From a phage: 43,293 nucleotides of DNA. A model generated the notes under the pieces. That model was not told the DNA's origin. It made no database searches and saw only the letters and a list, made by a program, of their open reading frames with translations. The stretch lies in the sequence record PV357169.1. One strand, given 5' to 3'. The translations under genes and the position numbers were made by a program. How positions within the stretch are numbered: the stretch's first letter is position 1; each line of letters starts with the position of its first letter. This document shows, one piece after another, positions 1-14,794 of the stretch.

Positions 1-314
1 CACAGCGTGCTTACTCATTACCTGCTGATATTGGTTCTGGGGTTACTGTTGTAAGCCTTAGTCCTGCCGGAGTATTAGTACACTCTGCCGGTAATGTAGA
101 CTTAGGTGCACTTGCTGTTGCTAGTGGGGCCACTTCAGGAACATTAACTATACCTAATGCAGATACAACTAAGTCGTATAGCGTTCGCCCATGGGTAGAT
201 AATCCAGCTACTGTAAACGATACTGCTTCCTGCGCTGCTGGCGTAATTACAGTAAACAGGCCTGTAGCAGTAGGTGTCCAACTTCCATCTACAGTGGAAT
301 ACTTATTGTTTTAA
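1..314 (+). CDS. 3' part of a gene that starts at 43046 and crosses the contig junction (156 aa in total); hypothetical protein downstream of the tailspike
   Basis: Frame from ATG 43046 continues through the 91-nt end overlap to TAA at 312-314; product is Ser/Thr/Val/Ala/Gly-rich; followed directly by a hairpin terminator. Confidence 0.5.
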   Translation, partial: QRAYSLPADIGSGVTVVSLSPAGVLVHSAGNVDLGALAVASGATSGTLTIPNADTTKSYSVRPWVDNPATVNDTASCAAGVITVNRPVAVGVQLPSTVEYLLF

Positions 315-315
315 A

Positions 316-350
316 CAAAGCCCCCCCCCCCCTGTAGTTGGGGGCTTTTC
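316..350 (+). terminator. Hairpin terminator after the last gene (poly-C tract / GGGGG stem followed by CTTTTCCTTTT)
   Basis: C12 run at 321-332, loop TGTAGTT, GGGGG at 340-344, then T-rich tail. Confidence 0.45.
321..332 (+). repeat. Homopolymer tract C12
   Basis: Seen directly; matched by a G13 tract at 562-574 about 230 bp downstream. Confidence 0.9.
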
Positions 351-531
351 CTTTTGTAGGTTAGTATTTATAAGTACTATTCCAGGTGCATATACGAAGT
401 TATCTGCAAGTGGGTACAAGAGAAGCGCCTGGAACATCACAAGGACTTCTCCCCCTGCGCAGGTGTATATCTGAACTCGAAATTTGTTATACTTACCCGA
501 CAGGGTCCCTCACCCTCAACGCGCCCAATTG

Positions 532-544
532 CCCCCATAGGGGG
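532..544 (+). repeat. Perfect palindrome CCCCCATAGGGGG
   Basis: Seen directly; as I recall the same 13-mer lies in the T7 terminal repeat, which suggests proximity to a genome end. Confidence 0.6.
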
Positions 545-561
545 TGTCCTGGGAGAATTTA

Positions 562-574
562 GGGGGGGGGGGGG
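562..574 (+). repeat. Homopolymer tract G13
   Basis: Seen directly. Confidence 0.9.
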
Positions 575-798
575 TATCTAGGTGGCTGGATGTCTGGACG
601 TCTAGATGGCCGCGGGCAGCCTGGGGCCTGCCAGTGCCTCTATGGCGCTCTCAGCGGCTCTCTGCGCTGCGCTAGGGCTATCGCTAGTGCTACCCTACGG
701 CTATGCCTGTGCGTTCACTAGGGCGCTTCCTGTGCGCTCCCTGTGGGCCATAGGGGTGCGCTCTGCCTTGCTTATTTTGTGCAGCCATAGTGCCACAC

Positions 799-820
799 CT
801 AGTGGGCCGTAGTGGGCCGC
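799..820 (+). repeat. Tandem direct repeat, 2 x TAGTGGGCCG
   Basis: Seen directly in the non-coding left-end region. Confidence 0.7.
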
Positions 821-846
821 CCAGTGCGCCGCTAGTGCGTCTATAT

Positions 847-881
847 GCTATCTCTAGAGCTATCTCTAGGGTTATCTCTAG
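847..881 (+). repeat. Tandem direct repeat, 3 x ~12 bp (GCTATCTCTAG / AGCTATCTCTAG / GGTTATCTCTAG)
   Basis: Seen directly. Confidence 0.8.
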
Positions 882-940
882 TGCTTTACATTGTGCCGAT
901 TATATGCTACGCTGCGCGCTCCCCACTAGGGCGCACATCC

Positions 941-980
941 ACTACCCACCACTACCCACCACTATCCACCACTATCCGCT
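941..980 (+). repeat. Tandem direct repeat, 4 x 10 bp (ACTACCCACC x2, ACTATCCACC, ACTATCCGCT)
   Basis: Seen directly. Confidence 0.8.
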
Positions 981-1056
981 ACACTCTGCCGTACTCTGTC
1001 GCTATCCCCAGAGCTATCCCTTACTCTTACTTTCATTCGAAAGCTATTCTGAAATG

Positions 1057-1073
1057 ATGTTACAGGAGTAGGA
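1057..1073 (+). promoter_or_regulatory. Copy 1 of conserved motif ATGTTACAGGAGTAGGA (candidate phage-RNAP promoter or nick-site element)
   Basis: Identical 17-mer also at 21259-21275 and 33408-33424; a variant at 13115-13134. Confidence 0.4.
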
Positions 1074-1494
1074 GGGTTTTAGGGAACTACATACACACTA
1101 CTTACTACTACTCACTAGTATCCCCTAGTAATGCCCTGTATTACGACCGTAGGGAGTAAGCATTACCTACACAGTCACCGCATCACTACGTGTCCTTTCA
1201 CTACGTACGGACACTACGTGACGCTTTATGTAGTACCGTGTAGTGTTGACTAGTAGTGGCTAGTATCGGCTAGTGCTATCCCTATTATGGTTGTAAGTAT
1301 TTGCCCTGCTTACCCTTTTTTGCCCTTAGGGATAAATATTTGCAAAAACTTTAAAATATTACTTGCTTCTTTTGGTTTGTTAGCGCTATAGTTCAATCAC
1401 CGGGAGGCGCTGAGGCGCTGAACGGGGTAGAGTCGGGAGACTCCACCGGATTAAAGCTAAATAGTGTGAAGGGTTAGATACTCAATAAAAAGAG

Positions 1495-1523
1495 TTGACA
1501 CCGCGAGGGACATAAGTTAGATT
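1495..1523 (+). promoter_or_regulatory. Candidate host sigma70 early promoter (TTGACA - 17 bp - TAGATT)
   Basis: Perfect -35 hexamer at 1495-1500, 17-bp spacer, 4/6 match -10 at 1518-1523; rightward, at the start of an ATG-poor leader before the first early gene. Confidence 0.4.
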
Positions 1524-1949
1524 GAATCCCGAAGTAAGAAGACTTCCCGATAGGTGATTAGCATCACGTTAAAAGGCTTCAACGGGGAGGCATCGGAAGA
1601 TGCAAGGTAGGACGCGCAAGGAGGCGCTAACAGGTAGTAAGAAATAAACGCGTGACAAGTTCTGATTCACCTAGTAACTTAGATAGCGAACAACGTAGTA
1701 AGCTGGTTTGCGGGGAGGCCCAGTACCTTAACTGGTACGTTGACGACCAAGCCTAGATAATCAGTTATAAAGAGTAAACGTGCCGGACGTTATCACCGGG
1801 GTTCTGAGGCAAACCTTACTGCCGAGGCGTGAGCAGCACGCTCCTCTGAATCGAGGGAACAAGGCGCGGAGTGTATCCCGCAAAGAGCATATAACATAGC
1901 GTAGCAGTAACAAGGCTGCGCTAGATTATGTTCTCTGAGAGGTAAGAGT

Positions 1950-2147
1950 ATGCGCAAAGCAAAACGCCTAGTATTGCGGCGGAATATGCAGTTATCACTG
2001 AATCCTACCGACGACGTGCCGCTTACTGTGAAGCCCAGCAAACAAGGACTTAGCAGTGAGCACAAGGTGAGGGGAAAGCAAAAACAAAAGGGCGGCAGTA
2101 AACAGCCTAGTGGGTGGCCTACTGTTAACTCCCAATTTGGGCACTAA
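1950..2147 (+). CDS. Small basic early protein (65 aa), hypothetical
   Basis: ATG preceded by GAGAGG 7 nt upstream; first ORF after the long leader. Confidence 0.45.
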   Translation: MRKAKRLVLRRNMQLSLNPTDDVPLTVKPSKQGLSSEHKVRGKQKQKGGSKQPSGWPTVNSQFGH

Positions 2148-2153
2148 TTACAG

Positions 2154-2183
2154 CCTATAGCATCCTATGTGGTGCTATGTGAA
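2154..2183 (+). promoter_or_regulatory. Conserved stem-loop element A (CCTATAGCATCCT...GCTATGTGAA)
   Basis: Stem TAGCA/TGCTA; same flanks and a co-varying stem at 2937-2966 and 9714-9745; 45 nt upstream of the gene at 2226. Confidence 0.45.
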
Positions 2184-2225
2184 GTAATTCGATAAGTAAA
2201 CAACCAACAATCAAAGAGGTGCGTC

Positions 2226-2801
2226 ATGACTCATTCAACTGGTAAAGTATTTAAGCTCACTGCTGCTGCTGGTATCCGCAAAGCACTGTCTGGCGTAGTG
2301 GAAGCAAAGCGCAACATCACTATCAGCGCGCTCTTTCACGGCCTGATTAGCAGCAACGTTTCCTGGGCTACTGAAATGCAGCGCAGCGACGCCGCTGACT
2401 TCGATATGGTGCTGCGTACGCTGTTGCCCATCAAGTTTAACAAGGAGTCCGGCAAGTACGAATTCAATGCTAAGAAGTGCTATGCGTCTGCTGAGAAGCT
2501 GGGTATCGAACTGGACACTATGCGTCTGGATTATAAACAAGCTGACAAGCAAGGCCGTGAAGAGATTGTGACCAGCTTCTATAGCTCCTGTATGGCCCTG
2601 TACGCTGCTGAAGCAGAGCAAGTGAAGAATGATGCCCTTGATGCCGATGCAGTGCGCCTGCAAGCTCTGGGGCGCGTTAAAAACGCCATCAAGAAGGCTA
2701 AAGAAACTGGGGTGAGCGACTCTGATTTGGTATCTATGCTTATCAGTCAGGGCGTGGATGTACGCGCTGTACTGGATGCAACTTTGAAGGTAGCGGCATG
2801 A
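2226..2801 (+). CDS. Early protein, hypothetical (191 aa)
   Basis: Long ORF with AAGAGG RBS 7 nt upstream. Confidence 0.7.
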   Translation: MTHSTGKVFKLTAAAGIRKALSGVVEAKRNITISALFHGLISSNVSWATEMQRSDAADFDMVLRTLLPIKFNKESGKYEFNAKKCYASAEKLGIELDTMRLDYKQADKQGREEIVTSFYSSCMALYAAEAEQVKNDALDADAVRLQALGRVKNAIKKAKETGVSDSDLVSMLISQGVDVRAVLDATLKVAA

Positions 2802-2929
2802 TTTATAAGATTCAAGCTATCAAGTGGTGGGCATTGATTCCGGCAGCTAACGACTCTGACGCCTTTGATGTGCCAACCCGGGGCCGCCATAACAGGTGGC
2901 ACTATAAGGGATTGGGAGAATACGTATAA
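2798..2929 (+). CDS. Small hypothetical protein (43 aa), translationally coupled (ATGA overlap)
   Basis: ATG overlaps the stop of the upstream gene; below the ORF-track size cutoff. Confidence 0.25.
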   Translation: MIYKIQAIKWWALIPAANDSDAFDVPTRGRHNRWHYKGLGEYV

Positions 2930-2936
2930 TGGTAAG

Positions 2937-2966
2937 CCTATAGCGTCCTGCGGGGCGCTATGTGAA
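2937..2966 (+). promoter_or_regulatory. Conserved stem-loop element B (CCTATAGCGTCCT...GCTATGTGAA)
   Basis: Stem ATAGCG/CGCTAT; compensatory change relative to element A. Confidence 0.45.
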
Positions 2967-2989
2967 TACCGTTAACAACGGGGTTTCAA

Positions 2990-3211
2990 ATGAAAGCAAA
3001 GCTAATCTATCCGGGGCATGTACTCTGGCCCGTATGGTGCAATCAAGTGCATACAGAGTATAACTATACTGTGATGATATTCTCTGACCGCGACACCAAT
3101 CAGGAATCCCCTTTAGATCTCGTAGACACCCATACCGAAGCAGCGGCGCGTACTTTGCTGGATGCCGTGAATCTCGGTATTATTACCGACTGGAGACAAC
3201 TTTATGACTAG
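2990..3211 (+). CDS. Early protein, hypothetical (73 aa)
   Basis: ORF directly downstream of stem-loop B; weak RBS. Confidence 0.5.
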   Translation: MKAKLIYPGHVLWPVWCNQVHTEYNYTVMIFSDRDTNQESPLDLVDTHTEAAARTLLDAVNLGIITDWRQLYD

Positions 3212-3467
3212 TATTGTCAATATCATTGTTACCAGCGCCATGCTGGTGCTAGGCAACGATGTGAATAACCCAGTGCCTTATTGCACTGTACACGTCCAAC
3301 AAGGGCAGCAGCAGGAGCAGCAACCACGCCCTGAGTACGACCTCTTTGAGAATCCAGAGGGCGGTTGCAAGGCGTTAGGTATTCGCCTACTTAAGGCGGT
3401 GCGAGAACAAGTGCCTAACGTCGCGGTAACTCTGACCGTGGACGGTGTAAGCAACAACGGTATCTGA
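3204..3467 (+). CDS. Early protein, hypothetical (87 aa, Gln-rich centre)
   Basis: Start overlaps the stop of the upstream gene. Confidence 0.5.
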   Translation: MTSIVNIIVTSAMLVLGNDVNNPVPYCTVHVQQGQQQEQQPRPEYDLFENPEGGCKALGIRLLKAVREQVPNVAVTLTVDGVSNNGI

Positions 3468-3474
3468 GGTGGGT

Positions 3475-3654
3475 ATGTACGGAAAGAATCCTGAAACGCT
3501 GCTGATGCGTAGGCAGCAACCAACAATCGACGGGCTAGCGCGGGAGTACAGCGCAAAAGCAGCGCTGCGCCAGCACTATGAGAAACAAGCAAAGCGGCTG
3601 GGTATGACCCTGCGCGGTTACTGTCACCGTTTTAATGTGCGAGGTGTAATATGA
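3475..3654 (+). CDS. Early protein, hypothetical (~59 aa; GTG start at 3469 also possible)
   Basis: GAGGTGGGT directly upstream of ATG 3475. Confidence 0.45.
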   Translation: MYGKNPETLLMRRQQPTIDGLAREYSAKAALRQHYEKQAKRLGMTLRGYCHRFNVRGVI

Positions 3655-3854
3655 ATGAATTAGTTGCATATGACTTGTACAAGCGCCCGAACGGGTTACT
3701 GTACCGGGTGCCGCTGTATGGTACGCTGAACGAGCACGCTGAACACTATAACAAACCTCTGCAGCGGTGGTTGCAGTCAAGCCACACAGTTGGCGGTATA
3801 GTATCCAGCGACAAGAGCACACTCGTGGCTCGCAATGTAGTATTCAAGGATTAA
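3651..3854 (+). CDS. Early protein, hypothetical (67 aa)
   Basis: ATGA overlap with the upstream gene. Confidence 0.5.
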   Translation: MNELVAYDLYKRPNGLLYRVPLYGTLNEHAEHYNKPLQRWLQSSHTVGGIVSSDKSTLVARNVVFKD

Positions 3855-3856
3855 GT

Positions 3857-4201
3857 ATGCTTACAGTAGACGAAACAGCGCTACTGTGCTGGCGCTTGCT
3901 AGAAACGCAGGGCAAGTGCGGGTGCCCGTGGGAAATATTCAAAGAGGTTCCAGATGAACTCAAGCAAATCGTGCCAGTCGAGCGCCGATTACTCCGCGTT
4001 AGAAAAGAGGGTATTGGCACTGTTCTCACAACCTATCGAGAGTATACAGAGTCTGCCGCGCGCAGATTGCAAGAGCACATTTCGTTCGATGTGGTTGCAG
4101 CACTCCTACGGTACGGGTATCGTGGAGCCTATACAAGATTTAGGGCGGCTGTGCGCTCGTATTATAAGCAGCGACAACTCTCAGCGTGGTATGCACGCTG
4201 A
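3857..4201 (+). CDS. Early protein, hypothetical (114 aa)
   Basis: Internal ATG of track ORF 3767-4201, with AAGGA RBS 8 nt upstream and no overlap with the preceding gene. Confidence 0.5.
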   Translation: MLTVDETALLCWRLLETQGKCGCPWEIFKEVPDELKQIVPVERRLLRVRKEGIGTVLTTYREYTESAARRLQEHISFDVVAALLRYGYRGAYTRFRAAVRSYYKQRQLSAWYAR

Positions 4202-4247
4202 ACTTTTAATGCATGATGAGATACTACTAACACCGGAGACAAAGAAA

Positions 4248-5948
4248 ATGCAAGGGACTAATAAAGTAACTGTAGACGTAAAAGTACCTGCCCACGAGGG
4301 TTGGACCATCAAATTTCCAGAAGGGGCCAATGCTCTTCCACTGAAGGATAGTATGTACTCTTCCGGGGATTACTGGTGCCAACTTCCCTACCTATCAACT
4401 CAAGGCCGTGCGCGCGTGCAAAGTAACAAAACCCGTGCGCTTTTGAATGGCTTTTATATGTTGTCAAGGGTGCTGCCGGGGTACCATGTAGCACTCGGCA
4501 ACTTTACAGCTGCAGGAGAGGAGTTGAGTGTATATACTGGGCCGCTGGGCACGGTTGATGTTAGTGACACTCTCCTGCATAACCTCTTTGGCTGTGCAGG
4601 TACCTGCGACCAAGCATTCGGTTTATCTAGCAGAAACTTCTATGATGGCCCTGACGTAGTTACAGAACGCGTAGTAGAAGCGGTCCAATACTTTACCGGA
4701 TACAAGGTGCACAAGCAGGCTATAGAGTTATTCGAAGAGATTATGCTAGCACCTACGTACTCCCTCCGGCGCAAATACCTTCGTGGGTACAGTGAAATTG
4801 ATGGGGATTACTGGGCAGCAACCTTGCTTATGCAGTTGCACGGATTTGTAGTATCTAGATTTGCAATCCCACTAGGTTTCGGCTTCCGCAACGGTGAGCC
4901 TGTAGTAATGCTGGGGCAGCCGCGATTACACAAAGACTACGCCGCTGTTACTGAGTATCGCTGTGTAGAGATGCGAGTAGGTAAGTGGCTCGCTAACTAT
5001 TACGGCAGCGGTGTAGACTTCAGGGAATGTATTGAAGACCTCAAAGCTATGAATGTGGAGCCTACTACATATCTTTGTAAGACCGAGCGGGAGTGGTACA
5101 ACGCATACGAGAATGGTCCTCGTAGCTGCATGACCGGATACAACTTCGAAGATAGCCCGGTGCGTGTATACGCTACGACTAGTCACGGCTTGCCGGACAA
5201 TAATCTGCGCCTGTTCATCCAGTATACTGGGGAACTTTTTGGTGACGACTTTGAAGTGCACGCCCGTGCTATCGTTAACATCGAAACCAATGAATATGTC
5301 CGTGCATATGGGGATGCTGCGGATGCCATCCTACGTGCTAACGGATATGAGTGCAATACAGACTGCTTAGATGGCGTACTACTGGCGCGTATTCCGCACC
5401 CTGAAAATGAAGGTGCCGTGCTTATGCCGTACTTGGATGGGAACCAAGACGGGGTGGATGAATTGGGCGGGGATGCATTCGTTATCTGCGACTGCTACGA
5501 CTACGAAGCGAAGGACGCTGCTGGTTACATTTGGATTGATGATGGTCACAGTGCTTGTGCAGAGTGTGGGGGACGTTTCGACGAGGATGACATGTACGTA
5601 GCTTGTGACGGTGGTTATGTATGCCCGCACTGCATCGGTGATACTTACGTACAGGTAGTGGGCCGCAGCATAGTGTACCCATCATGGGATTGCTCATGGT
5701 CTGACTACCACGACTCTTGGGTACTTGACCGGGACGTAGAACATTGTGCTGTAGAGGGTACAGTGCATGATGAAGAGCCAATGGCGTGCGTACAAGGGTA
5801 CAATGTTCTGAGTGTGCATGCCGAAGAGCACCCAGTGCACGGTATGATTCTCACGGAGTATGCTGCGTCCATATTGGATGAGCCCTACCTCGGTAATGAA
5901 GAAGCCGAAGAAGACAAAGAAGCTAAAGCAGAACAGGAGGCAGCTTAA
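4248..5948 (+). CDS. Large early protein of unknown function with a Cys-rich C-terminal region (CDCYDY, CAECGG, CPHC), ~566 aa
   Basis: Start chosen at ATG 4248 with GGAGA RBS (track ORF opens at 3954 but overlaps the previous gene); paired Cys motifs suggest metal binding. Confidence 0.55.
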   Translation: MQGTNKVTVDVKVPAHEGWTIKFPEGANALPLKDSMYSSGDYWCQLPYLSTQGRARVQSNKTRALLNGFYMLSRVLPGYHVALGNFTAAGEELSVYTGPLGTVDVSDTLLHNLFGCAGTCDQAFGLSSRNFYDGPDVVTERVVEAVQYFTGYKVHKQAIELFEEIMLAPTYSLRRKYLRGYSEIDGDYWAATLLMQLHGFVVSRFAIPLGFGFRNGEPVVMLGQPRLHKDYAAVTEYRCVEMRVGKWLANYYGSGVDFRECIEDLKAMNVEPTTYLCKTEREWYNAYENGPRSCMTGYNFEDSPVRVYATTSHGLPDNNLRLFIQYTGELFGDDFEVHARAIVNIETNEYVRAYGDAADAILRANGYECNTDCLDGVLLARIPHPENEGAVLMPYLDGNQDGVDELGGDAFVICDCYDYEAKDAAGYIWIDDGHSACAECGGRFDEDDMYVACDGGYVCPHCIGDTYVQVVGRSIVYPSWDCSWSDYHDSWVLDRDVEHCAVEGTVHDEEPMACVQGYNVLSVHAEEHPVHGMILTEYAASILDEPYLGNEEAEEDKEAKAEQEAA

Positions 5949-6982
5949 TGTACGGTGTTGACCTTAAACTACTGACAAAGATACTAACAACGCACCGACC
6001 TAGCTGGGGTAGTACCAAATGGTTTGAACCTCTACTTAGTAGCGCTCTTGCTGGTGCAGAGCACTACGTTAGGGATGCTCATGGTAACTACTTTGTGCTT
6101 ATTGGTGGCTCTGAACAGAGTGATGTAGCATTTACATCACACCTCGACACAGTGGCCCGGCCTGGTAGTGCTGCGCCAGACATTGCAACCACTAACAAGG
6201 GTGTAATGTTCCTGCGGAATCCACAGGTGGCGGATTGTCTAGGTGCAGACTGTGGTGCTGGTATCTACTTGATGCTGGAGATGATTAAGCGGGGAGTACA
6301 TGGACGTTACTGCTTCTTCGTGGATGAAGAGGTAGGCTGTGAAGGCAGCAGTGCATCCGCCAAGGACGACACTGGCTTCTGGACTGGTGTCAAGGCAATG
6401 ATTAGTTTTGACCGCCGAGGTGATGAGATCATTACGCATCAACGATACCAGCGTTGCTGTTCTGATACGTTCGCAAAGGAGCTGGCGGCCCGACTAGGAC
6501 GAACGGATGCGCACTTACAAAAAGGGGTATACACTGACTCTGCTGAGTTCATGCAGATTATCCCCGAATGCACTAACGTAGGTGTAGGGTACATGCACGA
6601 ACATACACCAGATGAGGTGCTGGACCTTAGCATTCTTGGTAGCGTACTGGAGCGCGTACTTAGTCCGGGTACATTCAAGCACCTGCCGATTGAGCGTGAT
6701 CCTAAAGTAGTGGAACCGGATGCGTGGTTATCTGCCTATACGCATCCCCTAACGATGCCTCTGGATGTTCCCCCTGCGGAAGATCCGCATTTACTAGCAG
6801 CGTTTAAGGAGGTGTCACAACTTTCTAAGCAGCAACTGATTAGCTGGGTGCTAGATAACCCAGCAAGAGCGGCGGAATACATCATGGTGTATTCTGATTA
6901 TGGCTTCAAAGAAGAGCTGATTGAACTAGGCACCCGAGTTGTAGAGGACTGGGGTGGATACGATAATATTGTGGAGGGTTGA
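5948..6982 (+). CDS. Putative M20/M28-like zinc metallopeptidase (344 aa)
   Basis: Ordered motifs SHLDTV, GADCGAG, DEEVGCEGS and a later His (GYMHEHT) resemble the metal-ligand pattern of M20-type peptidases; TAATG coupling to the upstream gene. Confidence 0.45.
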   Translation: MYGVDLKLLTKILTTHRPSWGSTKWFEPLLSSALAGAEHYVRDAHGNYFVLIGGSEQSDVAFTSHLDTVARPGSAAPDIATTNKGVMFLRNPQVADCLGADCGAGIYLMLEMIKRGVHGRYCFFVDEEVGCEGSSASAKDDTGFWTGVKAMISFDRRGDEIITHQRYQRCCSDTFAKELAARLGRTDAHLQKGVYTDSAEFMQIIPECTNVGVGYMHEHTPDEVLDLSILGSVLERVLSPGTFKHLPIERDPKVVEPDAWLSAYTHPLTMPLDVPPAEDPHLLAAFKEVSQLSKQQLISWVLDNPARAAEYIMVYSDYGFKEELIELGTRVVEDWGGYDNIVEG

Positions 6983-6984
6983 TT

Positions 6985-7452
6985 ATGTCTAAGTTTAAAG
7001 TTGGTGATAAAGTAGTACGCAAATCACCCGACGACAGCTCGTCGTTTAAGAAGCGCCAAGGGGATTTTGATTACTACACAGTTACAGCTATATCCTCAGG
7101 CGGTCACTGGTTACGGTTGAACAATTGTACTATCGATGGTGACTGGTACCCGTGGTATGCATCTAACTTTGAGCTGTACCAAGAGCCGGACGACGAGCTG
7201 CCACCGGTTCCAGCTAGTGTGGCTTACATGAACTCCAAGCGCGACCGCGGCAACGACCAGCGGCTAGTCCTAGAAAGATGCAGTTGGACTGATGAGAACC
7301 TACTCTACATCGGAATAGTTCCTAAAAAGAACAGCACCCGGGCAGAGCAGGAGATTGGTATTAATATGAGTCCTGATGCAGCCCTGCAACTAGCACACGA
7401 CCTTCGTCGCATGGCTATGGATATCAAACGTAAGGGGAAAGCAAATGCATAA
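6985..7452 (+). CDS. Hypothetical protein (155 aa)
   Basis: GGAGGG RBS 6 nt upstream of ATG 6985 (track starts at TTG 6979). Confidence 0.6.
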   Translation: MSKFKVGDKVVRKSPDDSSSFKKRQGDFDYYTVTAISSGGHWLRLNNCTIDGDWYPWYASNFELYQEPDDELPPVPASVAYMNSKRDRGNDQRLVLERCSWTDENLLYIGIVPKKNSTRAEQEIGINMSPDAALQLAHDLRRMAMDIKRKGKANA

Positions 7453-7648
7453 AATTATCACGTACAAAATGCCGCCTAAGAGTATTGTGGTTGGCATTCC
7501 GTTCACTTGGGGATCATGCAGCTTTTGGGTTATAAAGGTAGAGGGTGGCTACATATACCGTCTGGACGATGGACGGAAGGTGGATGTACCCGAAAGAGAC
7601 ATTTTATTGTGTGGAATAGTATACGCTAACAGAATCGAGATTAAGTAA
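7445..7648 (+). CDS. Hypothetical protein (67 aa)
   Basis: AAGGGGA RBS; overlapping stop/start with neighbours. Confidence 0.5.
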   Translation: MHKIITYKMPPKSIVVGIPFTWGSCSFWVIKVEGGYIYRLDDGRKVDVPERDILLCGIVYANRIEIK

Positions 7649-8439
7649 TGGACCAGCCCTGGCTTAGAGCGTGCAAGCGCCTGGCCGTGGGGCAGAGGGC
7701 ACGCTTTCGGTGCTGCGGCAGGGACTCCGCCGGGGTGCTCTATAATAACCCGGATGCCTGGGAATACTATTGCCACCGCTGCAAACAGGTAGGCAAGGAG
7801 CGCAAGCAGTACCAGCGCATACAGTTACAGGAAGAGCCGAGGGTGCAGCCCTCTGCACCTGCAGATGCAATTTGCATTAGCCAAGCGCCTGCAGAAACGC
7901 AGAGTTTTATTTACGGATTCCTTGCTTCAAAGGGAATCATGCCTGAAATGGTGGGGGATGCAGAATGGAGCAAAGAGAAACAGCGGATAATCTTCCGTGT
8001 CGGAAGCGCTGCTCTGGGCCGTGCAGTACATGCTCGGCAGCAACCGAAGTGGGTAATGTACGGCCAGCCAATAGCTTTCGCTGTCGCGGAACCTGCCGTA
8101 GCACCGGCTGTAGCTGCGGGCGCTCCTCTAAAGGTCGTGCTCACAGAGGACTTACTCTCAGCCCTGAAGATACAGCACGCAGTTACGAGCTACAGTGCGT
8201 TGAACGTGCAGGCTATAGCTATGCTGGGTACACGCTTGCCCACGCAGCTAAGGGCCTGGCTGATTCAGAATCGCCCGGAAGTGATTCTAATGTTGGACAA
8301 TGACCCGGCAGGACATGCTGGGGTAGCGGCAACACGCCGGGCACTGCGCCCGTTCATGCAGTGCCGAGAACACTACTTCGCTGCGGATCCTAAGGACGCA
8401 GAAATCAAAGAGATACTGGAGGCATTAACTTGGACTTAA
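7648..8439 (+). CDS. DNA primase (zinc-ribbon + TOPRIM)
   Basis: CCGRDSAG...YYCHRCKQ zinc-binding pattern; acidic TOPRIM motifs LTEDLL and MLDNDPAG. Confidence 0.7.
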   Translation: MDQPWLRACKRLAVGQRARFRCCGRDSAGVLYNNPDAWEYYCHRCKQVGKERKQYQRIQLQEEPRVQPSAPADAICISQAPAETQSFIYGFLASKGIMPEMVGDAEWSKEKQRIIFRVGSAALGRAVHARQQPKWVMYGQPIAFAVAEPAVAPAVAAGAPLKVVLTEDLLSALKIQHAVTSYSALNVQAIAMLGTRLPTQLRAWLIQNRPEVILMLDNDPAGHAGVAATRRALRPFMQCREHYFAADPKDAEIKEILEALTWT

Positions 8440-9710
8440 TAGTTGTGCGTGCAATGTGCACGCAGAAGGTCTGGAACCGACTGCGAGAGCAGATACCCAA
8501 GTCTATGCTTGCGCCGGACACCTCGAACCTGCTGGACTGGGTAGGGCTGTACTGGAACACGTACCCAGAGCACCAAGAGGTGCAGTGGGATGCGATGCAG
8601 AGTATGCTCAACCTCCGGGCCGGGCATCTATCCCGTGAAGAGCGGGTGATTATGGATGAGCTTATGCGGGGAGTACAAGCCGTACCACAGGATTCTGTGG
8701 TGGGGATTGTGCAGACCCTGAATGAGTTGGCATACAGCGGAGAGGTTGCAGCGCTCACGCAGCGCTACCAAGACGGTGAGGAGGTTGATTATCTACTGGA
8801 GATGAAGCACCTCCAGCGCAAGTACGGGGATGGTGCTGCTGTTCATGATTCGCTACTAGAGTGGGAGAGCGGAAGTGTTGATGAGATACTTGCCGCGACT
8901 GATGAAAGTGGTGGTCTTAAACTGGGCGTATTTGAGCAACTCTCTAATAGCATCCGCGGGCTTCGCGGTGGTGATTGTATTGCTGTGGCTGCCCCTGTTG
9001 ATTCTGGTAAAACTAGCCTACTCGCTGCTATTGCTGTGGACTTTGCTAAGCAGATGCAGCAGCAACCGGAGGTGTACGGGGATCGTCCGATTCTATGGCT
9101 GGTTAATGAAGGCCCGGCGACGCGCACTGTGCCGAGGGTATACCAAGCGGCGCTGCATTGGACTCTGGCTGAGATTAAGGACAGGCACAGTAAGCAAGAG
9201 TTTGTGCCGGCCTATTTGGAGAAAGTAGGTAGGGCTGACCGCATCCGTATCAAGGCGGCACACTCTCTTACTATGGCTCAAATCTCTACGCTAATGGAGG
9301 AGATGCGCCCGGCGGTAATCATCATAGATATGGTAGCTAACATCCGTGGTGGTACGATGGAGAGCGAACACCAGAACCTAGAGGCGAAGTGGCAGGAGCT
9401 GCGAATCCTGGGGTGTGAGAATGACTGTGCCGTTATTGGTACTATGCAGCTTTCACTCGAAGGTTATAACCTGCTGTTTCCACCGCTCACAGCAATGAAG
9501 CAGAGTAAGATTGGTGTGCAAGGTGCTTTGGATTTAGCAATTATGATGGGGTGCTTGGACAGGAACGAGCAGCCGCATATGCAAAACATTCGTGGTATCA
9601 GTACGCCGAAGAATAAGATGGCGCTATCGGGTAAGGAATCGCTACTGCAATTCGAGGTAGCATTCGACCCAGGTAGATGCCGATTTAACGAAGGGCAGAT
9701 TAACAAGTGA
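8430..9710 (+). CDS. Replicative DNA helicase (DnaB/T7 gp4 C-terminal-like)
   Basis: Walker A AAPVDSGKTSLL; directly follows the primase; probable TTG start with GGAGG RBS. Confidence 0.75.
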   Translation: MDLIVVRAMCTQKVWNRLREQIPKSMLAPDTSNLLDWVGLYWNTYPEHQEVQWDAMQSMLNLRAGHLSREERVIMDELMRGVQAVPQDSVVGIVQTLNELAYSGEVAALTQRYQDGEEVDYLLEMKHLQRKYGDGAAVHDSLLEWESGSVDEILAATDESGGLKLGVFEQLSNSIRGLRGGDCIAVAAPVDSGKTSLLAAIAVDFAKQMQQQPEVYGDRPILWLVNEGPATRTVPRVYQAALHWTLAEIKDRHSKQEFVPAYLEKVGRADRIRIKAAHSLTMAQISTLMEEMRPAVIIIDMVANIRGGTMESEHQNLEAKWQELRILGCENDCAVIGTMQLSLEGYNLLFPPLTAMKQSKIGVQGALDLAIMMGCLDRNEQPHMQNIRGISTPKNKMALSGKESLLQFEVAFDPGRCRFNEGQINK

Positions 9711-9713
9711 CTT

Positions 9714-9745
9714 CCCTAGCGCCTTCCTAGAGGGCGCTATGTAGG
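9714..9745 (+). promoter_or_regulatory. Conserved stem-loop element C (CCCTAGCGCC...GGCGCTATGTAGG)
   Basis: 7-bp stem TAGCGCC/GGCGCTA; related to elements A and B; sits just after the helicase gene. Confidence 0.4.
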
Positions 9746-9772
9746 TACACAGATGATGGATGGAGATATACT

Positions 9773-9871
9773 ATGTTTATACTGACAGACTGGGAGTGCA
9801 AGCACTGCGGGGCAAGGTTGACATTTATAGGTGGTATGTGCATCCAGTGTGGGAGAAGGCAGAATGCTTAA
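9773..9871 (+). CDS. Small zinc-ribbon-like protein (32 aa; CKHC...CIQC)
   Basis: GGAG RBS 8 nt upstream; two CxxC pairs; below the ORF-track cutoff. Confidence 0.35.
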   Translation: MFILTDWECKHCGARLTFIGGMCIQCGRRQNA

Positions 9872-10019
9872 ACCGTCCGACATTAACTATCTCGACGAAG
9901 AGGTAATTAAGGCGTACGCTGCATCTGTGGGTACTTTCAGCATACGGCCCGTGCTAATTAGCAGCCGGCTGATTGTGCACTTGGCTGTCAATAAGGCGCG
10001 GAGGATTAATTGGAGATGA
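9864..10019 (+). CDS. Hypothetical protein (51 aa)
   Basis: Internal ATG of track ORF 9831-10019 with GGAGAAGG RBS. Confidence 0.35.
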   Translation: MLKPSDINYLDEEVIKAYAASVGTFSIRPVLISSRLIVHLAVNKARRINWR

Positions 10020-10465
10020 CAGATTGTATCGACCACGGGCAGAAGGGAAGCACTTGCCGAGGAAAGTGCGCTGGATATGGCCGCTCCAGATTTGATGGAG
10101 AGACAACTGGAAGCCACCGCAAAGCGTATTGTATAGCCCACAACTTGAAGCTGAGTGATATCGCGGGACTTGTAGTCCGGCATTCGTGTGACAATCCTCG
10201 GTGCATAAATCCGGAGCACCTGCTACTAGGGACTTCTAGTGATAATATGCAGGACCGAAATAAAGGTGCGCGTAATTTGCTGGGCAGCCGCAACCCTGCT
10301 GCCAGACTTACCCCAGAAGACGTGCACAGTATACGAGAAGCATATGCTGGCGGTGAGACCCAGGTATCTATAGCGAGACGCTTCGGGATAAGTCAAGGAT
10401 ACATATCTAATATCATAAAGGGGAGGGTATGGAATGAGCAGAAGCATCCTGATAACGGATTATGA
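10010..10465 (+). CDS. HNH homing endonuclease (copy 1)
   Basis: HSCDNPRCINPEHLLLGT HNH core; paralog of 13155-13589; 3' end overlaps the DNA polymerase start by 32 nt. Confidence 0.8.
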   Translation: MEMTDCIDHGQKGSTCRGKCAGYGRSRFDGETTGSHRKAYCIAHNLKLSDIAGLVVRHSCDNPRCINPEHLLLGTSSDNMQDRNKGARNLLGSRNPAARLTPEDVHSIREAYAGGETQVSIARRFGISQGYISNIIKGRVWNEQKHPDNGL

Positions 10466-12773
10466 GACGCAAAATCACCCATATTACGGTAGTGTTGCTT
10501 CCCCGTACTGTCCGGATAATTACATCGTAGAATCAGCGTGGCGTATTGACCGCACGCACGATGACGGTACGGTAGAAGTAGGCCCCGTAGAGAGTGTACG
10601 GTATAACAGTCGCGCGCACTTTGAAGCGGCACCTGTATCAGAATGGCTCCCAATACCAGCTGACTGTTGGCTGATTGTGGCCCACAACGCCGCATATGAG
10701 ATTAGCTGGTTCCTAACCTTTGCGCGCGCCGAGTTTGAGGCCTTCCTAAAGCGGGGAGGTCGCGTATTCTGTACGATGCATTCTGAGTACATCGCCTCGG
10801 ACTTTCAGAGTATGTATCCGTCACTGGACGAGACAGCTCCTAAGTACGGCGGTACGCACAAAGTAGACGGTGTTAAGATTCTATGGGAGCAAGGTGTATT
10901 AACCTCCCAGATCGACCCTATACTATTGCACGACTACCTAGTTAACGGGGATATACCGAACACGGCCCTGTGCTTCTACGGCCAGTGCGGTATCTTTGCA
11001 GAGCGCAACCAAATGCAGTACGTATGGGAGCGCATGGATGCCTTACTGGCCTGGGCCTACTGCGAATGGTTCGGTCTGTTCGTGAATATGCCGATTGCTC
11101 GCAAGAACCAAGAAGAGCAGGAACAGCGTATACTGGAGATTAAGAAGGAGCTGCAGCAGTATATCCCCAAGGACTTGCCGGAGACGCTAGATTTCAACTT
11201 CGGTTCTGACTTTCATATGTCTGCGCTGGTGTATGGCGGCCCTATCAAGTACCGCAAGAAGGTGCCCTACGACCCGCCGCAATACGTCAAGGCGGACTAC
11301 TGGCAAGTAGGCGACACTTGGGTTGCTGTGGATGATATGCCCGCTCCCCCTGGGGCGACTACATACAAGGCCGGGAAGAACAAGGGCTTACCAAAAGTCT
11401 TCCGCATAGATACAGCGGAAGAGAAACTCAAATGGGAAGAGGACCTCTACTTCTGCCCAGGCCTGGTTAACATCCAAGAACTGCCCGAGGTACTCCGAGA
11501 GAAGTATGCTGAGCGTGGAGAGTTCAGGCAAGCCCGGAATCTGCAGGATGGGACACCAATCTACAGCACCAGTACTGATGCTATGGAAGCGCTAGCCCGT
11601 CACGGGTTCGAGTTCTGTCGATTGGTGAACGAGCTAGGTGCTCTGGAGAAGGACACAGGAACCTACTATCTACGAACGGAGTACAACGAAGATGGGTCAG
11701 TTAAAAAGACCTCGGGCATGCTTCAATACGTCATACCTCAGAACCCTGATGGTTCAGGTATTATCCACCACCGTCTTAACACCTGTGCCACCGTCACCGG
11801 GCGACTGTCAGGTTCTAACCCGAATCTCCAGAATCTACCGCGCGATGGGACGAGCCGGGTTAAACAGATGTTCACCTCTCGTTTCGGAGAATCTGGTCGC
11901 ATCACTGAGGTTGACTATTCGGCCCTGGAAGTGGTTATGTCTTGTGTTCACACTGGAGACCTTAAACTACTGGGGCTACTGCAGTCCGGCACGGACATGC
12001 ACTGTTACCGACTAGCATTTAAGGAGAACAAAACCTACGAAGAGATGTACGACCTGTGCCATAACGCTGACGGGCCAGACTACAAGTACTGGAAGCAGCA
12101 GCGTACGGACATTAAGCCCCCTAGTTTTGCTGCGCAGTATGGTGCTACGGCTAAGGGTATCGCCTTTGCTACCGGATGTACCGTAGAGTATGCACAGGCG
12201 TTCCTGGATAACGAGGCTAAGCTGTTCCCAACAACCATAGGATTCCGCGCTGTTGTCAAGGAAGAAGTAGAGCGTACCGGGGCAGCTGGACGCATTTACC
12301 GGGAGCAAGCTGATGATGGTAGTTATCGTATCTACCGAATTGGTACCTGGACCAGCCCAGCAGGTGCCCGCTACAGCTTCCGTCAGAAGGAGCAGTGGAA
12401 GGAAGTAGTCCCTGGCCAGCGCAAGCAGAAGGTGATGGACTACAAGGAAACCGAGATGGCTAACTACTGGTGTCAAGGTGAGGCGTTCTTCTTGATGGCA
12501 GTCGCAGCCGGTATGGTTCTGCGTGCGATGCTGGCACGTGACTGGTTCGACAATCAGGTGTGCTTGATTACGAACGTACACGATGCATTGTATCTTGACA
12601 GTGCCAATCCAGAGGTAGGCAGAGAAGCGAGCCTGTTAGTTAAGCAGTGCATGGAAGACGCACCTAAGCGTATCCACCAGCTATGGCCTAACTACGGTAT
12701 CATTGGGCAGGTCCCGTTCCCAGCGGAAGCTGAAATGGGTACAAGCATGTACAGTAAGGAGAAAGTAGAATGA
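10434..12773 (+). CDS. DNA polymerase, family A (T7 gp5-like)
   Basis: Motif A EVDYSALE, motif B K...FAAQYG, motif C VHDALYLD; N-terminal exonuclease-like region. Confidence 0.9.
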   Translation: MSRSILITDYETQNHPYYGSVASPYCPDNYIVESAWRIDRTHDDGTVEVGPVESVRYNSRAHFEAAPVSEWLPIPADCWLIVAHNAAYEISWFLTFARAEFEAFLKRGGRVFCTMHSEYIASDFQSMYPSLDETAPKYGGTHKVDGVKILWEQGVLTSQIDPILLHDYLVNGDIPNTALCFYGQCGIFAERNQMQYVWERMDALLAWAYCEWFGLFVNMPIARKNQEEQEQRILEIKKELQQYIPKDLPETLDFNFGSDFHMSALVYGGPIKYRKKVPYDPPQYVKADYWQVGDTWVAVDDMPAPPGATTYKAGKNKGLPKVFRIDTAEEKLKWEEDLYFCPGLVNIQELPEVLREKYAERGEFRQARNLQDGTPIYSTSTDAMEALARHGFEFCRLVNELGALEKDTGTYYLRTEYNEDGSVKKTSGMLQYVIPQNPDGSGIIHHRLNTCATVTGRLSGSNPNLQNLPRDGTSRVKQMFTSRFGESGRITEVDYSALEVVMSCVHTGDLKLLGLLQSGTDMHCYRLAFKENKTYEEMYDLCHNADGPDYKYWKQQRTDIKPPSFAAQYGATAKGIAFATGCTVEYAQAFLDNEAKLFPTTIGFRAVVKEEVERTGAAGRIYREQADDGSYRIYRIGTWTSPAGARYSFRQKEQWKEVVPGQRKQKVMDYKETEMANYWCQGEAFFLMAVAAGMVLRAMLARDWFDNQVCLITNVHDALYLDSANPEVGREASLLVKQCMEDAPKRIHQLWPNYGIIGQVPFPAEAEMGTSMYSKEKVE

Positions 12774-12991
12774 CTATTAAACCAGGTAGTATTGTGGAGA
12801 TACTAGGACTTGGGCCGGAACCATTAGAACCTAGACACCGTGATTACTTTGCACCTGGCACTCAGCATCGTGTGATATCTTATGATCCTGAACTCTGGGA
12901 GGTGGAATTAATCAATCCAGATAACAACTCAGAGAAGCCTGGGGATGGTATTACCTTCTTCTCTGGAGAGTACAAACTTATCGTGGAGTGA
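12770..12991 (+). CDS. Hypothetical protein (73 aa)
   Basis: ATGA coupling to the DNA polymerase gene. Confidence 0.5.
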   Translation: MTIKPGSIVEILGLGPEPLEPRHRDYFAPGTQHRVISYDPELWEVELINPDNNSEKPGDGITFFSGEYKLIVE

Positions 12992-13114
12992 TGATATAGG
13001 TGGACCCTTGGGTGGTGTAGGGGGTTAGGGTAGCATGAGAATTAGCTAGGGTCAAGCAGATAATTAATTAAAATTATTTGTTGACTCTGACTTGATTCTG
13101 TGATTTACCGAGAA

Positions 13115-13134
13115 TTAATGTGATACGAGTAGGA
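13115..13134 (+). promoter_or_regulatory. Variant copy of the conserved motif (TTAATGTGATACGAGTAGGA)
   Basis: 16/19 identity to the 21259 copy; 20 nt upstream of the HNH copy 2 start. Confidence 0.3.
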
Positions 13135-13154
13135 ACAACATAAGAGGATACCAA

Positions 13155-13589
13155 ATGTCGATGTGCATTGACCATGGGTATACCAAATGCCTTAATAAGA
13201 ACGGGTACCGCCGGGCATGGTATAAGCCAACTAAACAATTGGAGCTTCTGCACCGGGTGGTGTACGCTGAGCATAACGGGATAGACATAAGGGCAATGGC
13301 CGGGCTGTCTGTTAGACACACCTGCGATAACCCTAGGTGCATTAATCCAGAGCACTTAGTGCTAGGGACGCACTTGGATAATATGAATGACCGTGCGGAA
13401 CGTGGAAGGAACCCAGATGTACGGGGAGAGCGAAACCCAAAAGCACTGCTATCTTGGGACGCCGTGCGGGATATTAGGGCCAACTATGTCCCGTACAAGA
13501 AAGGTATGCGGCAACACTTTGCTAATAAGTATGGTGTGGGTGTACATGTAATCAGTGACGTGATAAGTAACAGGAGCTGGAATGCCTAA
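13155..13589 (+). CDS. HNH homing endonuclease (copy 2)
   Basis: RHTCDNPRCINPEHLVLGT HNH core; AAGAGGA RBS. Confidence 0.8.
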   Translation: MSMCIDHGYTKCLNKNGYRRAWYKPTKQLELLHRVVYAEHNGIDIRAMAGLSVRHTCDNPRCINPEHLVLGTHLDNMNDRAERGRNPDVRGERNPKALLSWDAVRDIRANYVPYKKGMRQHFANKYGVGVHVISDVISNRSWNA

Positions 13590-14562
13590 GTTAAACACAA
13601 TCAAGCTATTCACCAAAGAGCAGCACGTAGATATCCTAAGCAAGCACAGCTCTAACGTGGACGCTGCAGCCGCCTACAACAAGCTGGCAGGACTAGCTGA
13701 GCCGGTGGTGTACCGCCAGATGGTGAAGTACTGGCGCAGCATCTTCCTAGACCACAATGGTAGCAAGGGTAAGGCAGTATCTCACATGAAGGAGGCACTA
13801 AAGCTCATACAGCCTAGCCCCACTGATGACATCGGTAAAACCTTCGTACCGGAAGTATGCCACCGTATTCTCGTTGTCGGTGATCTGCATGCCCCCTATA
13901 CTCACGTAGATGCCATGGACTTCCTAAAAAGTGTGCGGGATGAATACTGTCCTGACATGGTGGTACAGGTTGGTGATGAGACGGACGGCCACGCTATATC
14001 ATTCCACGAAAGTAACCCGAACCTAGACAGTGCCGGGGTGGAACTGGAGAAAGCTAAGCTAGTGCTGGAGGAGCTGCATGAACTATTCCCGAACCTTCTT
14101 GTTTGCGATTCCAATCACGGGAGTCTTGTATATCGCCGCGCCAAGGCTCACGGCTTACCAGTTCAATTTATTAAGCGATACCGGGACATTCTATTCCCCG
14201 AGCATAGTGCTCCAGGTTGGTCGTGGGCCGATGCTTGGGTGCTTAGTACACCTCTCGGGCCCGTCCGGTTTCAACATCAGGTTAGCGGCGACTTCATGCT
14301 TAACGCGAGCCACGAGAGAACGTCGCTCGTTTTGGGGCATGAACATGGGCGCTTCGAAGTACAATATGCGGCTTCTTCTACGGCACTGTATTTTGGCGCA
14401 TATGCAGGGTGCCTGATTGACCGCAAGAGCATGGCCTTTGCTTACGGCAGACTCACCCGTAAGAAACCAATCCTGGGTGTACTGGTAATCACGGAGGGTT
14501 GTCCCCAGTTAATTCCGATGTTACTTGACGACAATGGTCGTTGGGTTGGTCGTTCTAAATAA
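13582..14562 (+). CDS. Calcineurin-like metallophosphoesterase (putative nuclease/phosphatase)
   Basis: Signature order GDLHAP, GDETDGH, DSNHG, GHEHG. Confidence 0.7.
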   Translation: MPKLNTIKLFTKEQHVDILSKHSSNVDAAAAYNKLAGLAEPVVYRQMVKYWRSIFLDHNGSKGKAVSHMKEALKLIQPSPTDDIGKTFVPEVCHRILVVGDLHAPYTHVDAMDFLKSVRDEYCPDMVVQVGDETDGHAISFHESNPNLDSAGVELEKAKLVLEELHELFPNLLVCDSNHGSLVYRRAKAHGLPVQFIKRYRDILFPEHSAPGWSWADAWVLSTPLGPVRFQHQVSGDFMLNASHERTSLVLGHEHGRFEVQYAASSTALYFGAYAGCLIDRKSMAFAYGRLTRKKPILGVLVITEGCPQLIPMLLDDNGRWVGRSK

Positions 14563-14575
14563 TATAGAGGTGATG

Positions 14576-14743
14576 ATGAAAATGGAAATCTGTTCTATAC
14601 TGGGTCTTATCTTTGTAACTCTGAAACTGACCGGCGTTGTCGCCTGGTCTTGGTTGTGGGTGCTGCTCCCGTTCTGGGGGCCTTTAGTGATCTGCCTGTT
14701 AGTAGTGCTCATTCTATTGGGTCTTAAGGCCTTAGCCAGCTAA
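14576..14743 (+). CDS. Small membrane protein, two predicted TM helices (~55 aa)
   Basis: Strongly hydrophobic ORF; several in-frame starts (14570-14582) after a GAGG RBS. Confidence 0.4.
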   Translation: MKMEICSILGLIFVTLKLTGVVAWSWLWVLLPFWGPLVICLLVVLILLGLKALAS

Positions 14744-14794
14744 GCCCTGCATCTGCACGTAAATATTATTTGAACTAAACGAGGACATAATTAT

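Follow-up and report, generated by a model that had tools for sequence, protein, structure and literature searches.

At the left end of the phage T7 genome, a promoter for the phage RNA polymerase (RNAP), phiOL at 405, is followed by the host promoters A1, A2 and A3 (at 498, 626 and 750), a gene-free leader, a hairpin and the first small early gene, 0.3, at 925. The same succession, with three tandem host promoters about 125-160 nucleotides (nt) apart, is found at the left end of a Klebsiella phage genome (sequence record PV357169.1; the whole stretch of 43,293 nt is called the window here), in and around positions 1300-1950, ahead of the first gene, gp01. This region is probably the untranslated early control region of a KP34-like podophage and the counterpart of the T7 phiOL/A1-A2-A3/R0.3 segment. 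Both leaders are purine-rich (58% and 61%) and they share no sequence similarity. The Klebsiella phage leader is longer, is mosaic and carries a six-hairpin element found across genera; cleavage by RNase III is proven in T7 and a guess here; and the RNAP gene, 2 kb downstream in T7, lies about 17 kb downstream in this phage group.

A second close system is the phiKMV-like Pseudomonas phage LUZ19, in which five early promoters at the left end, P002-P006, were mapped by Oxford Nanopore Technologies (ONT)-cappable-seq (PMC10914365). The two phages share the phiKMV-type Autographiviridae genome plan. In each, several strong host promoters crowd the extreme left ahead of the first gene, and phage-specific promoters come behind the RNAP gene and among the structural genes. 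The starts are mapped experimentally in LUZ19 and predicted here, no sequence relationship is detectable, and no covariation-supported leader structure has been described for LUZ19. The ompA 5' untranslated region (UTR) and the T4 gene 32 leader offer a further parallel: stable stem-loops near the 5' end of the transcript, directly before the ribosome-binding site. Those are single hairpins with demonstrated function, whereas the leader of the window contains multi-helix domains with conserved unpaired sequence and a function that is predicted.

The genome belongs to Drulisvirus (KP34-like; Autographiviridae, Slopekvirinae): a BLAST search of 1000-2300 against GenBank phages returns 221 records, nearly all from this genus. 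In the alignment to phage KpV41, KpV41 position 419 corresponds to window position 1000, which puts the left genome end near window position 580, and KpV41 gp01 (65 amino acids (aa), the first annotated gene) corresponds to 1950-2147. The leader thus lies about 720-1370 base pairs (bp) from the genome left end, within the gene-free leading part. Comparisons below draw on 40 related IMG/VR loci, fetched via the conserved gp02 gene, plus GenBank relatives; single loci are cited by L numbers.

For work against Klebsiella pneumoniae, both therapeutic and engineering, Drulisviruses rank among the most widely employed phages, and their early transcription is known from in silico promoter predictions only. 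The control-region map given here comprises one phage promoter, three host promoters and four folded RNA domains at base-pair coordinates. Its promoter content is not new: the three host promoters are already predicted, in silico, in papers or GenBank records. By contrast, the covariation-supported leader domains, above all the cross-genus six-hairpin leader of gp01, appear not to have been described before.

Phage and host promoters

The promoters of the region are:

1055-1070, + strand: strong promoter of the phage RNAP, TGATGTTACAGGAGTA (KP34 "S2" type), with start G1071; its transcripts would read rightward through the leader
1363-1392, + strand: P1, sigma70-type, TTGCTT-18-TATAGT (8/12), with A/T-rich 1330-1362 upstream; predicted start about 1399
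1495-1523, + strand: P2, sigma70-type, TTGACA-17-TAGATT (10/12), with an A-tract (AATAAAAAGAG) just upstream; predicted start about 1530
1652-1680, + strand: P3, sigma70-type, GTGACA-17-TAACTT; predicted start about 1687

The phage promoter matches T(A/G)ATGTTACAGGAGTA exactly. This pattern occurs three times in the window (1055, 21257 and 33407), with none expected by chance, and is active in vitro with KP34 RNAP at the equivalent position of KP34, nt 475-490 (Lu et al., 2019, PMC6834552). P1, P2 and P3 follow downstream of it in tandem, all rightward and about 130-160 nt apart.

The original prediction had a single sigma70 promoter, P2, which is present at exactly the proposed position; as the sole driver of the region it does not hold, since it is one of three tandem host promoters with a phage-RNAP promoter upstream. 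P2 is the only hit of a sigma70 consensus scan in 1-5000. The consensus match per se is not above chance (one found, 5.0 expected from shuffles), and the promoter owes its credibility to the conservation of its hexamers, which are identical in 35 of 40 related sequences and recur, around an unrelated spacer, in Pantoea phage LIMElight. P2 was predicted in all five "Kp34likevirus" phages, and P3 was predicted too (Eriksson, 2015, PMC4411677, Table 3). Downstream of P2, the start region GAATCCCG(A/T)AGTAAG is common to Kuravirus early promoters.

The flanking promoters are similarly conserved. The P1 hexamers are identical in 38 of 39 relatives, with a variable 3' half of the spacer; the KpV48 record lists P1 as a promoter (778-807), and that of LIMElight lists its positional homologue (805-849). 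P3 reads TTGACA/TAACTT in 29 of 31 relatives and GTGACA in this phage only; it is annotated in the KP-Rio/2015 and LIMElight records and is conserved across genera. All three host promoters are annotated in LIMElight, and their order is the same there and in a related metagenomic contig. The P3 variant is a T-to-G change in the first base of the -35 hexamer, at 1652; the otherwise identical cassette of phage EC22.5-2 keeps TTGACA.

The long open reading frames (ORFs) of the window are all on the + strand, with the phage RNAP gene at 18784-21252, about 17 kb downstream of the leader; about 19 kb of early and middle genes follow the promoter cluster. From 1900 to 21400, sigma70-like sites are not in excess and strong terminators are absent. 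With no such excess, P1-P3 form the only evident entry for host RNAP ahead of the phage polymerase gene.

Start-codon depletion, composition and coding status

The stretch between the repeat arrays (about 840-1275) and the first conserved ORF, which starts at 1950, had been described as a poorly ATG-furnished region of about 650 bp, and this description is borne out. Two ATGs occur in 1300-1949, at 1600 and 1928, before the gp01 start at 1950, and none in 1290-1599. Dinucleotide shuffles give 6.6 +/- 2.1 (P(<=2) = 0.019), and no other 650-nt window of the + strand has a lower count (genome median 13). The depletion is family-wide: 26 homologous leaders average 5.15 ATG/kb, as against 19.75/kb genome-wide. 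Both leader ATGs lie in the 3' arms of predicted hairpins (1599-1603 and 1926-1931).

The region is non-coding, because its 52 stop triplets across 1300-1950 close every + frame, because indels of lengths not divisible by three are tolerated among homologues (8 nt and 10 nt in block 1300-1535; 1-7 nt around 1690-1765), and because whole cassettes are swapped within it. These data bear on the idea that the region encodes small proteins, such as a 15-codon ORF at 1600-1647 or minus-strand ORFs of 50 and 90 codons. A GGAGG at 1586-1590 does lie 9 nt before ATG 1600, small ORFs are annotated here in some GenBank records, and the minus strand has long stop-free stretches. However, ATG 1600 is absent from the Kuravirus homologues of its cassette and sits inside a covarying stem, and the P1- and P3-proximal blocks A and B accept the indels noted above. 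The minus-strand frames are expected opposite a purine-rich + strand, are broken in L002 and L022, and would run against phage genes that are all on the + strand. Coding by the leader is thus barely credible.

Composition also sets the leader apart. Among 551-nt stretches of the + strand, 1399-1949 is the richest in purine (60.6%, rank 1 of 1710). Windows of 78 nt with more C than G make up 1.3% of 1399-1949, 21-24% of genes and 69% of 1071-1392. In the 26 homologous leaders, purine content is 57.5-60.5% and C/G is 0.67-0.82, regardless of the cassettes that they carry. Such a composition would reflect selection for untranslatable RNA that is a poor substrate for Rho.

The strand composition flips abruptly at about 1400, the predicted P1 start; 1071-1392 is pyrimidine-rich (44% purine) and would be transcribed by the phage polymerase alone.

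Folded domains of the leader

Four domains are proposed, numbered by position as follows:

1400-1473, + strand: domain A, P1-proximal structured RNA; outer helix 1407-1412/1462-1467, inner helix 1417-1419/1455-1457
1426-1434/1439-1447, + strand: hairpin of domain A, with a GGGA (GNRA) loop
1532-1629, + strand: cassette K, P2-proximal structured module; helices 1543-1549/1583-1589 and 1554-1558/1563-1567
1590-1594/1599-1603 and 1614-1617/1624-1627, + strand: further helices of cassette K, the first with a GGAA loop and burying ATG 1600
1701-1766, + strand: domain B, P3-proximal structured RNA; closing helix 1702-1708/1759-1765 (7 bp), hairpin 1723-1727/1734-1738
1783-1931, + strand: domain L, six-hairpin gp01 leader of about 150 nt (RNAalifold, 17 distinct sequences)
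1783-1786/1796-1799, 1808-1810/1821-1823 and 1826-1831/1837-1842, + strand: hairpins a, b and c of domain L
1843-1846/1853-1856 and 1866-1869/1878-1881, + strand: hairpins d and e of domain L
1889-1894 + 1897-1905 / 1915-1923 + 1926-1931, + strand: hairpin f of domain L, 15 bp with a 2x2 internal loop, burying ATG 1928

Domain L is the best-supported element. Its alignment comprises 13 Drulisvirus sequences, PBKP05, LIMElight, Zoomie and one metagenomic contig, 17 sequences in all; 98.7% of cells are paired and 11 of the 36 pairs show double changes, a result that none of 500 shuffles reaches. When the pairing partners are slid by 1-3 columns, 32-46% of cells pair and 0-3 pairs carry double changes. 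In LIMElight (Pantoea) and Zoomie, domain L is still about 80% identical, though the gp01 protein is only 39-44% identical there. The mean pairwise identity of domain L, 95.6%, exceeds that of gp01 (81.9%) and gp02 (90.0%) in the same phages. To judge by these identities, the gp01 leader RNA is under stronger selection than the early proteins and is common to Pantoea and Erwinia phages. The domain ends 6 nt before the gp01 Shine-Dalgarno sequence and always adjoins the gp01 ribosome-binding site. Its last hairpin, f, has 15 covariation-supported bp, or 19 bp in the single-sequence fold.

Across 34 loci domain B hardly varies, also where the sequence upstream of it is different. Its pairing is kept in 91.3% of cells, as against 14-48% with slid partners; 6 of 13 pairs are double-changed, and again none of 500 shuffles reaches this. 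Between its two helices lies the near-invariant GTTGACGACCAAGCCTAGA. As a repeated phage promoter or site, the core of domain B was rejected: it is unique in the genome and gave no acceptable sigma70 geometry in the scan.

In domain A, aligned with RNAalifold over 33 distinct sequences, the hairpin shows pair types such as CG:17/UA:15/UG:1 and CG:30/UA:2 and has no broken cells. An insertion of 8 nt at 1415/1416 is tolerated and swaps one small hairpin for another. The single-sequence z-score of the domain is -2.3. In cassette K, the comparison of the window to Kuraviruses gives compensatory stems, GCATC-GGAA-GATGC versus CGGTA-GGAA-TACCG and GCGC/GCGC versus GCAC/GTGC.

Compensatory changes in these hairpin domains point to a + strand that is transcribed and folded, and the long structured 5' leader that had been suggested finds its support in the four domains, A, K, B and L, each with such changes. 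The three copies of C(G)GGGAGGC noted in the same prediction are also there: CG?GGGAGGC starts on the + strand at 1401, 1583 and 1711, with one further match in the window, on the - strand at 20443. What does not stand is the idea of one repeated site, as the copies fall in three different structured domains. Copy 1 (1401-1409) is at the 5' edge of domain A; copy 2 (CGGGGAG, 1583-1589) pairs with CTTCCCG at 1543-1549 and forms one strand of a cassette K helix; copy 3 (1711-1719) lies between the two helices of domain B, as does the near-invariant block. The three CGGGGAGGC copies are thus G-rich parts of domains A, K and B and not one repeated protein site. They were also considered as ribosome-binding sites and rejected: only copy 2 has an ATG in range, and that ATG is absent in Kuraviruses and lies in a stem.

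The conservation could alternatively reflect a signal in DNA, e.g., a replication origin composed of a phage promoter and A/T-rich sequence, as in the T7 phiOL/primary origin, or a site for genome entry or packaging. Downstream of the phage-RNAP promoter (1055-1070) there is indeed the stretch of lowest GC in the region, 1201-1400 (0.39), and the whole lies within about 1.4 kb of the genome left end. According to Molineux and colleagues, the leading end of T7 reportedly must carry promoters that are used in pulling in the genome. However, compensatory changes such as UG/CG and GU/GC in hairpin f and domain B preserve G-U pairing solely on the + strand, which fits RNA and not duplex DNA, and the strand-asymmetric composition begins exactly at P1. 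As an account of the leader a DNA-level signal is very improbable; it could still hold for 1300-1395, where it is compatible with the leader model.

Cassette exchange and relation to Kuraviruses

The leader is conserved in blocks. From P2 to the next conserved block, P3, the distance varies from 44 to 321 nt among relatives, with unrelated cassettes inserted. Cassette K is a mobile module, rare in Drulisvirus and 100% identical in EC22.5-2 despite different flanks. BLAST finds it about 80% identical, over 84-99 nt, to part of the 1.9-kb early non-coding region of Kuravirus coliphages (SU10, EP335, Paul and phiEco32). This is real homology: it covers 1532-1629 and the P2 start region (GAATCCCG.AGTAAG), and the hairpins are kept. 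The Kuravirus promoter-leader units differ in that they end in an rrn-like boxA (CGCTCTTTAA[A/C]AAT, 3-4 copies), of which the window has none, and the remaining parts of the genomes are unrelated.

The gene-free early region of Kuraviruses, about 1.9 kb long, consists of 3-4 tandem units (L043:1400-2260 in SU10, L044, L045, and L046 on the - strand). Each unit opens with a strong sigma70 promoter and its A-tract, followed by hairpins and the rrn-like boxA (CGCTCTTTAAAAAT, GCTCTTTAACAAT). Their sequence suggests Nus-dependent antitermination of early transcription in these phages. No literature linking phiEco32-like phages with boxA was found; a 2022 paper on the phiEco32-like phage 7-11 states that the antitermination strategy "remains to be defined".

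Repeats of (C/T)AGTAAG occur at 1533-1538, 1636-1641 and 1697-1702, with equivalents in L001-L042, after the start region of each promoter. They bracket the cassette insertion points, and the motif is present also in Kuravirus leaders; it may provide micro-homology for cassette exchange or be a functional 5' RNA motif.

Exchange of this kind raises the question of whether the leader is cut into free-standing small RNAs that act in trans, as decoys or sponges for host or defence factors. The P2-P3 slot and the slot between domain B and gp01 are hotspots at which unrelated structured cassettes are exchanged, even across phage families, as accessory or counter-defence loci typically show. Transcribed from three or four promoters, such RNAs would be abundant, and ncRNA (non-coding RNA) candidates derived from 5' UTRs are described in other virulent phages, including LUZ19 (PMC10914365). 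On the other hand, no terminators or defined 3' ends are predicted, Rfam gives no match, and domain L is always found right beside the gp01 ribosome-binding site. The lack of similarity to E. coli and to the genomes of 185,579 bacterial species argues against mimicry of host RNAs. Trans-acting RNAs are quite improbable on this evidence.

The original prediction had left the choice between a leader and an early non-coding RNA. No intrinsic terminator-like site is found on the + strand in 1300-3600, and because nothing of this type would release a separate small RNA, "leader" is the better fit: the folded, non-coding leader is upheld and the free-standing RNA is not. An attenuator or riboswitch with a terminator platform likewise lacks the required 3' intrinsic terminator in the same interval. 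Rfam 15 has no match at the gathering threshold in the whole window and none at E<=5 in 1040-2260, and the window contains no tRNA or tmRNA. A host origin of the leader was rejected (zero matches in 5,426 E. coli genomes). A 20-nt core pattern, sought in 596 Gb of bacterial genomes, gave four scattered matches in unrelated taxa, taken as chance.

The gp01 gene and possible processive antitermination

The leader ends at the first gene:

1937-1942, + strand: Shine-Dalgarno sequence of gp01, GAGAGG, 6 nt after hairpin f and 7 nt before the ATG
1950-2147, + strand: gp01, the first gene, 65 aa and very basic; 3' boundary of the leader

The substitutions in gp01 follow a coding-like pattern, and the protein matches phrog_32970 (unknown function). 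Searches found no significant Pfam family and PHROGs families of unknown function only; a PDB profile search was empty, and a search of 5.8 billion proteins returned unnamed close relatives only. An AlphaFold2 model has a helix at residues 2-16, the basic N-terminus, and disorder in the remainder, at low confidence (pLDDT, the predicted local distance difference test, of 60).

gp01 exists as two alleles with unrelated N-terminal halves, MRKAKRLVLRRN... in the window (1950-2147) and MKYRDKLKQQFEGLEK... in L004:2307-2522 and similar loci. The alleles share the C-terminal VRGKxKxKGxSKxPxGW..QFG, and each is linked to a leader version of its own. A covariance model built on domain L gives weak full-length matches right before the alternative allele (E ~1e-5 to 1e-2), and the block CT.TGAGAGGT of the Shine-Dalgarno region is conserved in both leader types. 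The type II leaders (L004:2119-2309, L020:1959-2228 and L003:1771-2206) seem, by eye, to contain an H-type pseudoknot, formed between the loop of a GGGGC/GCCCC hairpin and a strand further downstream; this pairing covaries in three forms, GGCGCT/AGCGCC, GACACT/AGTGTC and GATGATT/AATCATC.

The main rival to a T7-style leader is processive antitermination, in which domain L, alone (as HK022 put) or with gp01 (as in the lambda N-boxB/nut system), would modify host RNAP and let it read about 19 kb to the phage RNAP gene. The architecture invites the comparison. Like this locus, the lambda pL-nutL-N segment has an early promoter, a long structured leader with small stable-loop hairpins and a large hairpin before the ribosome-binding site, and its first gene, N, encodes a small, basic, largely disordered protein with a basic N-terminal helix. 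Domain L lies just past the sole host promoter cluster and upstream of everything else, with the phage polymerase gene some 17 kb away, and is conserved in unpaired as well as paired positions, more than the genes are. gp01 is first, small and very basic, with a modelled N-terminal MRKAKRLVLRRN helix and a disordered remainder; the leader type and the gp01 N-terminal type switch together around a shared C-terminal VRGKxKxKGxSKxPxGW, although this co-variation is expected from linkage alone. GNRA-loop hairpins are present at 1426-1447 and 1590-1603, and Kuraviruses have the rrn-like boxA right after their homologue of cassette K.

The specific signatures of known systems are, however, missing. 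No boxA (CGCTCTTA / GCTCTTTAA) is found in 1000-2300 even at 3 mismatches, nor in Drulisvirus leaders; gp01 shows no detectable similarity to N or to entries of Pfam or the PDB; the leader has no second copy elsewhere; and the early region has no predicted strong intrinsic terminator that would have to be overridden. The likeness to lambda is architectural only. That gp01 was not reported as toxic in fHe-Kpn01 speaks neither for nor against the idea. Processive antitermination as a whole therefore looks unlikely.

Just downstream, a 32-nt element, AGCCTATAGC(A/G)TCC....GG(T/C)GCTATGTGAA, has two intergenic copies, 2152-2183 and 2935-2966. Copy 1 starts 5 nt past the stop codon of gp01; copy 2 folds into a stable hairpin of 9 bp capped by a UGCG (UNCG) loop, and the copies differ by a compensatory A-T/G-C pair. 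The element was called a phage promoter by Eriksson (2015) and is inactive with KP34 RNAP in vitro according to Lu et al. (2019). It may be an mRNA stabiliser, a processing site or a protein site.

A fuller version of the proposal, in which domain L is an antitermination device of phiKMV-type phages, alone (put-like) or with gp01, perhaps with 2152-2183 and 2935-2966 as nut-like sites, is distinctly unlikely. If true, antitermination would make the locus considerably more interesting and would explain how host RNAP crosses to a late-placed RNAP gene; the interchangeable cassettes, one of them shared with the boxA-bearing Kuravirus leaders, would then be alternative solutions to the same problem.

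Proposed function of the leader

As a T7-style early control region, the locus would work as follows. At the onset of infection, host RNAP would initiate at P1-P3 and produce nested transcripts; later, the phage RNAP would read through the same region from 1071. The 260-550 nt ahead of gp01 are free of usable starts, with the residual ATGs buried in stems, which would keep ribosomes off, and the purine-rich, C-poor untranslated RNA would not allow Rho to load. Each promoter is followed by a conserved fold of its own (P1 by A, P2 by K and P3 by B), and these folds would serve as 5' stabilisers of the nested transcripts. Domain L, common to all transcripts, would be the cis-acting leader of gp01 that sets the stability, processing and translation of early mRNA, and its hairpin f may be an RNase III-type target or a 5' protective hairpin, comparable to R0.3 before T7 gene 0.3. 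The leader is in this sense a candidate answer to the question of how, in phiKMV-type phages, about 19 kb can be traversed by host RNAP before any phage polymerase is made.

Several observations weigh against this interpretation. In the T7 leader, ATGs are not depleted (8 in 427 nt) and C is not scarce (C/G 0.98), so the T7 analogy leaves both properties unexplained. Hairpin f, at 15-19 bp, is below the canonical RNase III substrate of about 22 bp. The unpaired stretches of domains B and L are highly conserved, as much as their stems, a pattern that suggests a specific binding partner, which a simple stabiliser would not need. Single-sequence folding is no better than shuffles for 1528-1770 (z = 0.04) and domain B (z = 0.38); since the energies are unremarkable, support for K and B comes from comparative data on few independent lineages. 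The combined type I/type II alignment has 21 of 36 pairs double-changed, a count inflated by fitting the alignment to the model. The start sites at about 1399, 1530 and 1687 are derived from the hexamers, P3 is probably weakened in this phage by the T-to-G change at 1652, and no Drulisvirus transcriptome was found in the literature.

If the domains are merely stabilisers, the locus is a well-documented yet ordinary T7-style leader. Domain L is a defined target for mutational study of early-gene control, and engineering could place cargo in the variable cassette slots and avoid domains A, B and L.

Repeats and the left genome end

Two further features lie to the left of the leader. A C12 tract at 321-332 and a G13 tract at 562-574 form a perfect inverted pair around about 229 bp, between the terminator of the last gene and the repeat arrays, near the expected genome ends and the terminal repeat of about 214-222 bp in relatives. 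The pair could be a real terminal feature or an artefact of assembly or tailing. The phage-RNAP promoter at 1055-1070 is embedded in arrays of 10-12-nt repeats (CACCACTA(C/T)CC, GCTATCTCTAG, ACTAGTA...) that occupy 840-1275; nowhere at the left end is conservation lower than in this stretch, with a mean identity of 72.6% for 1100-1290.

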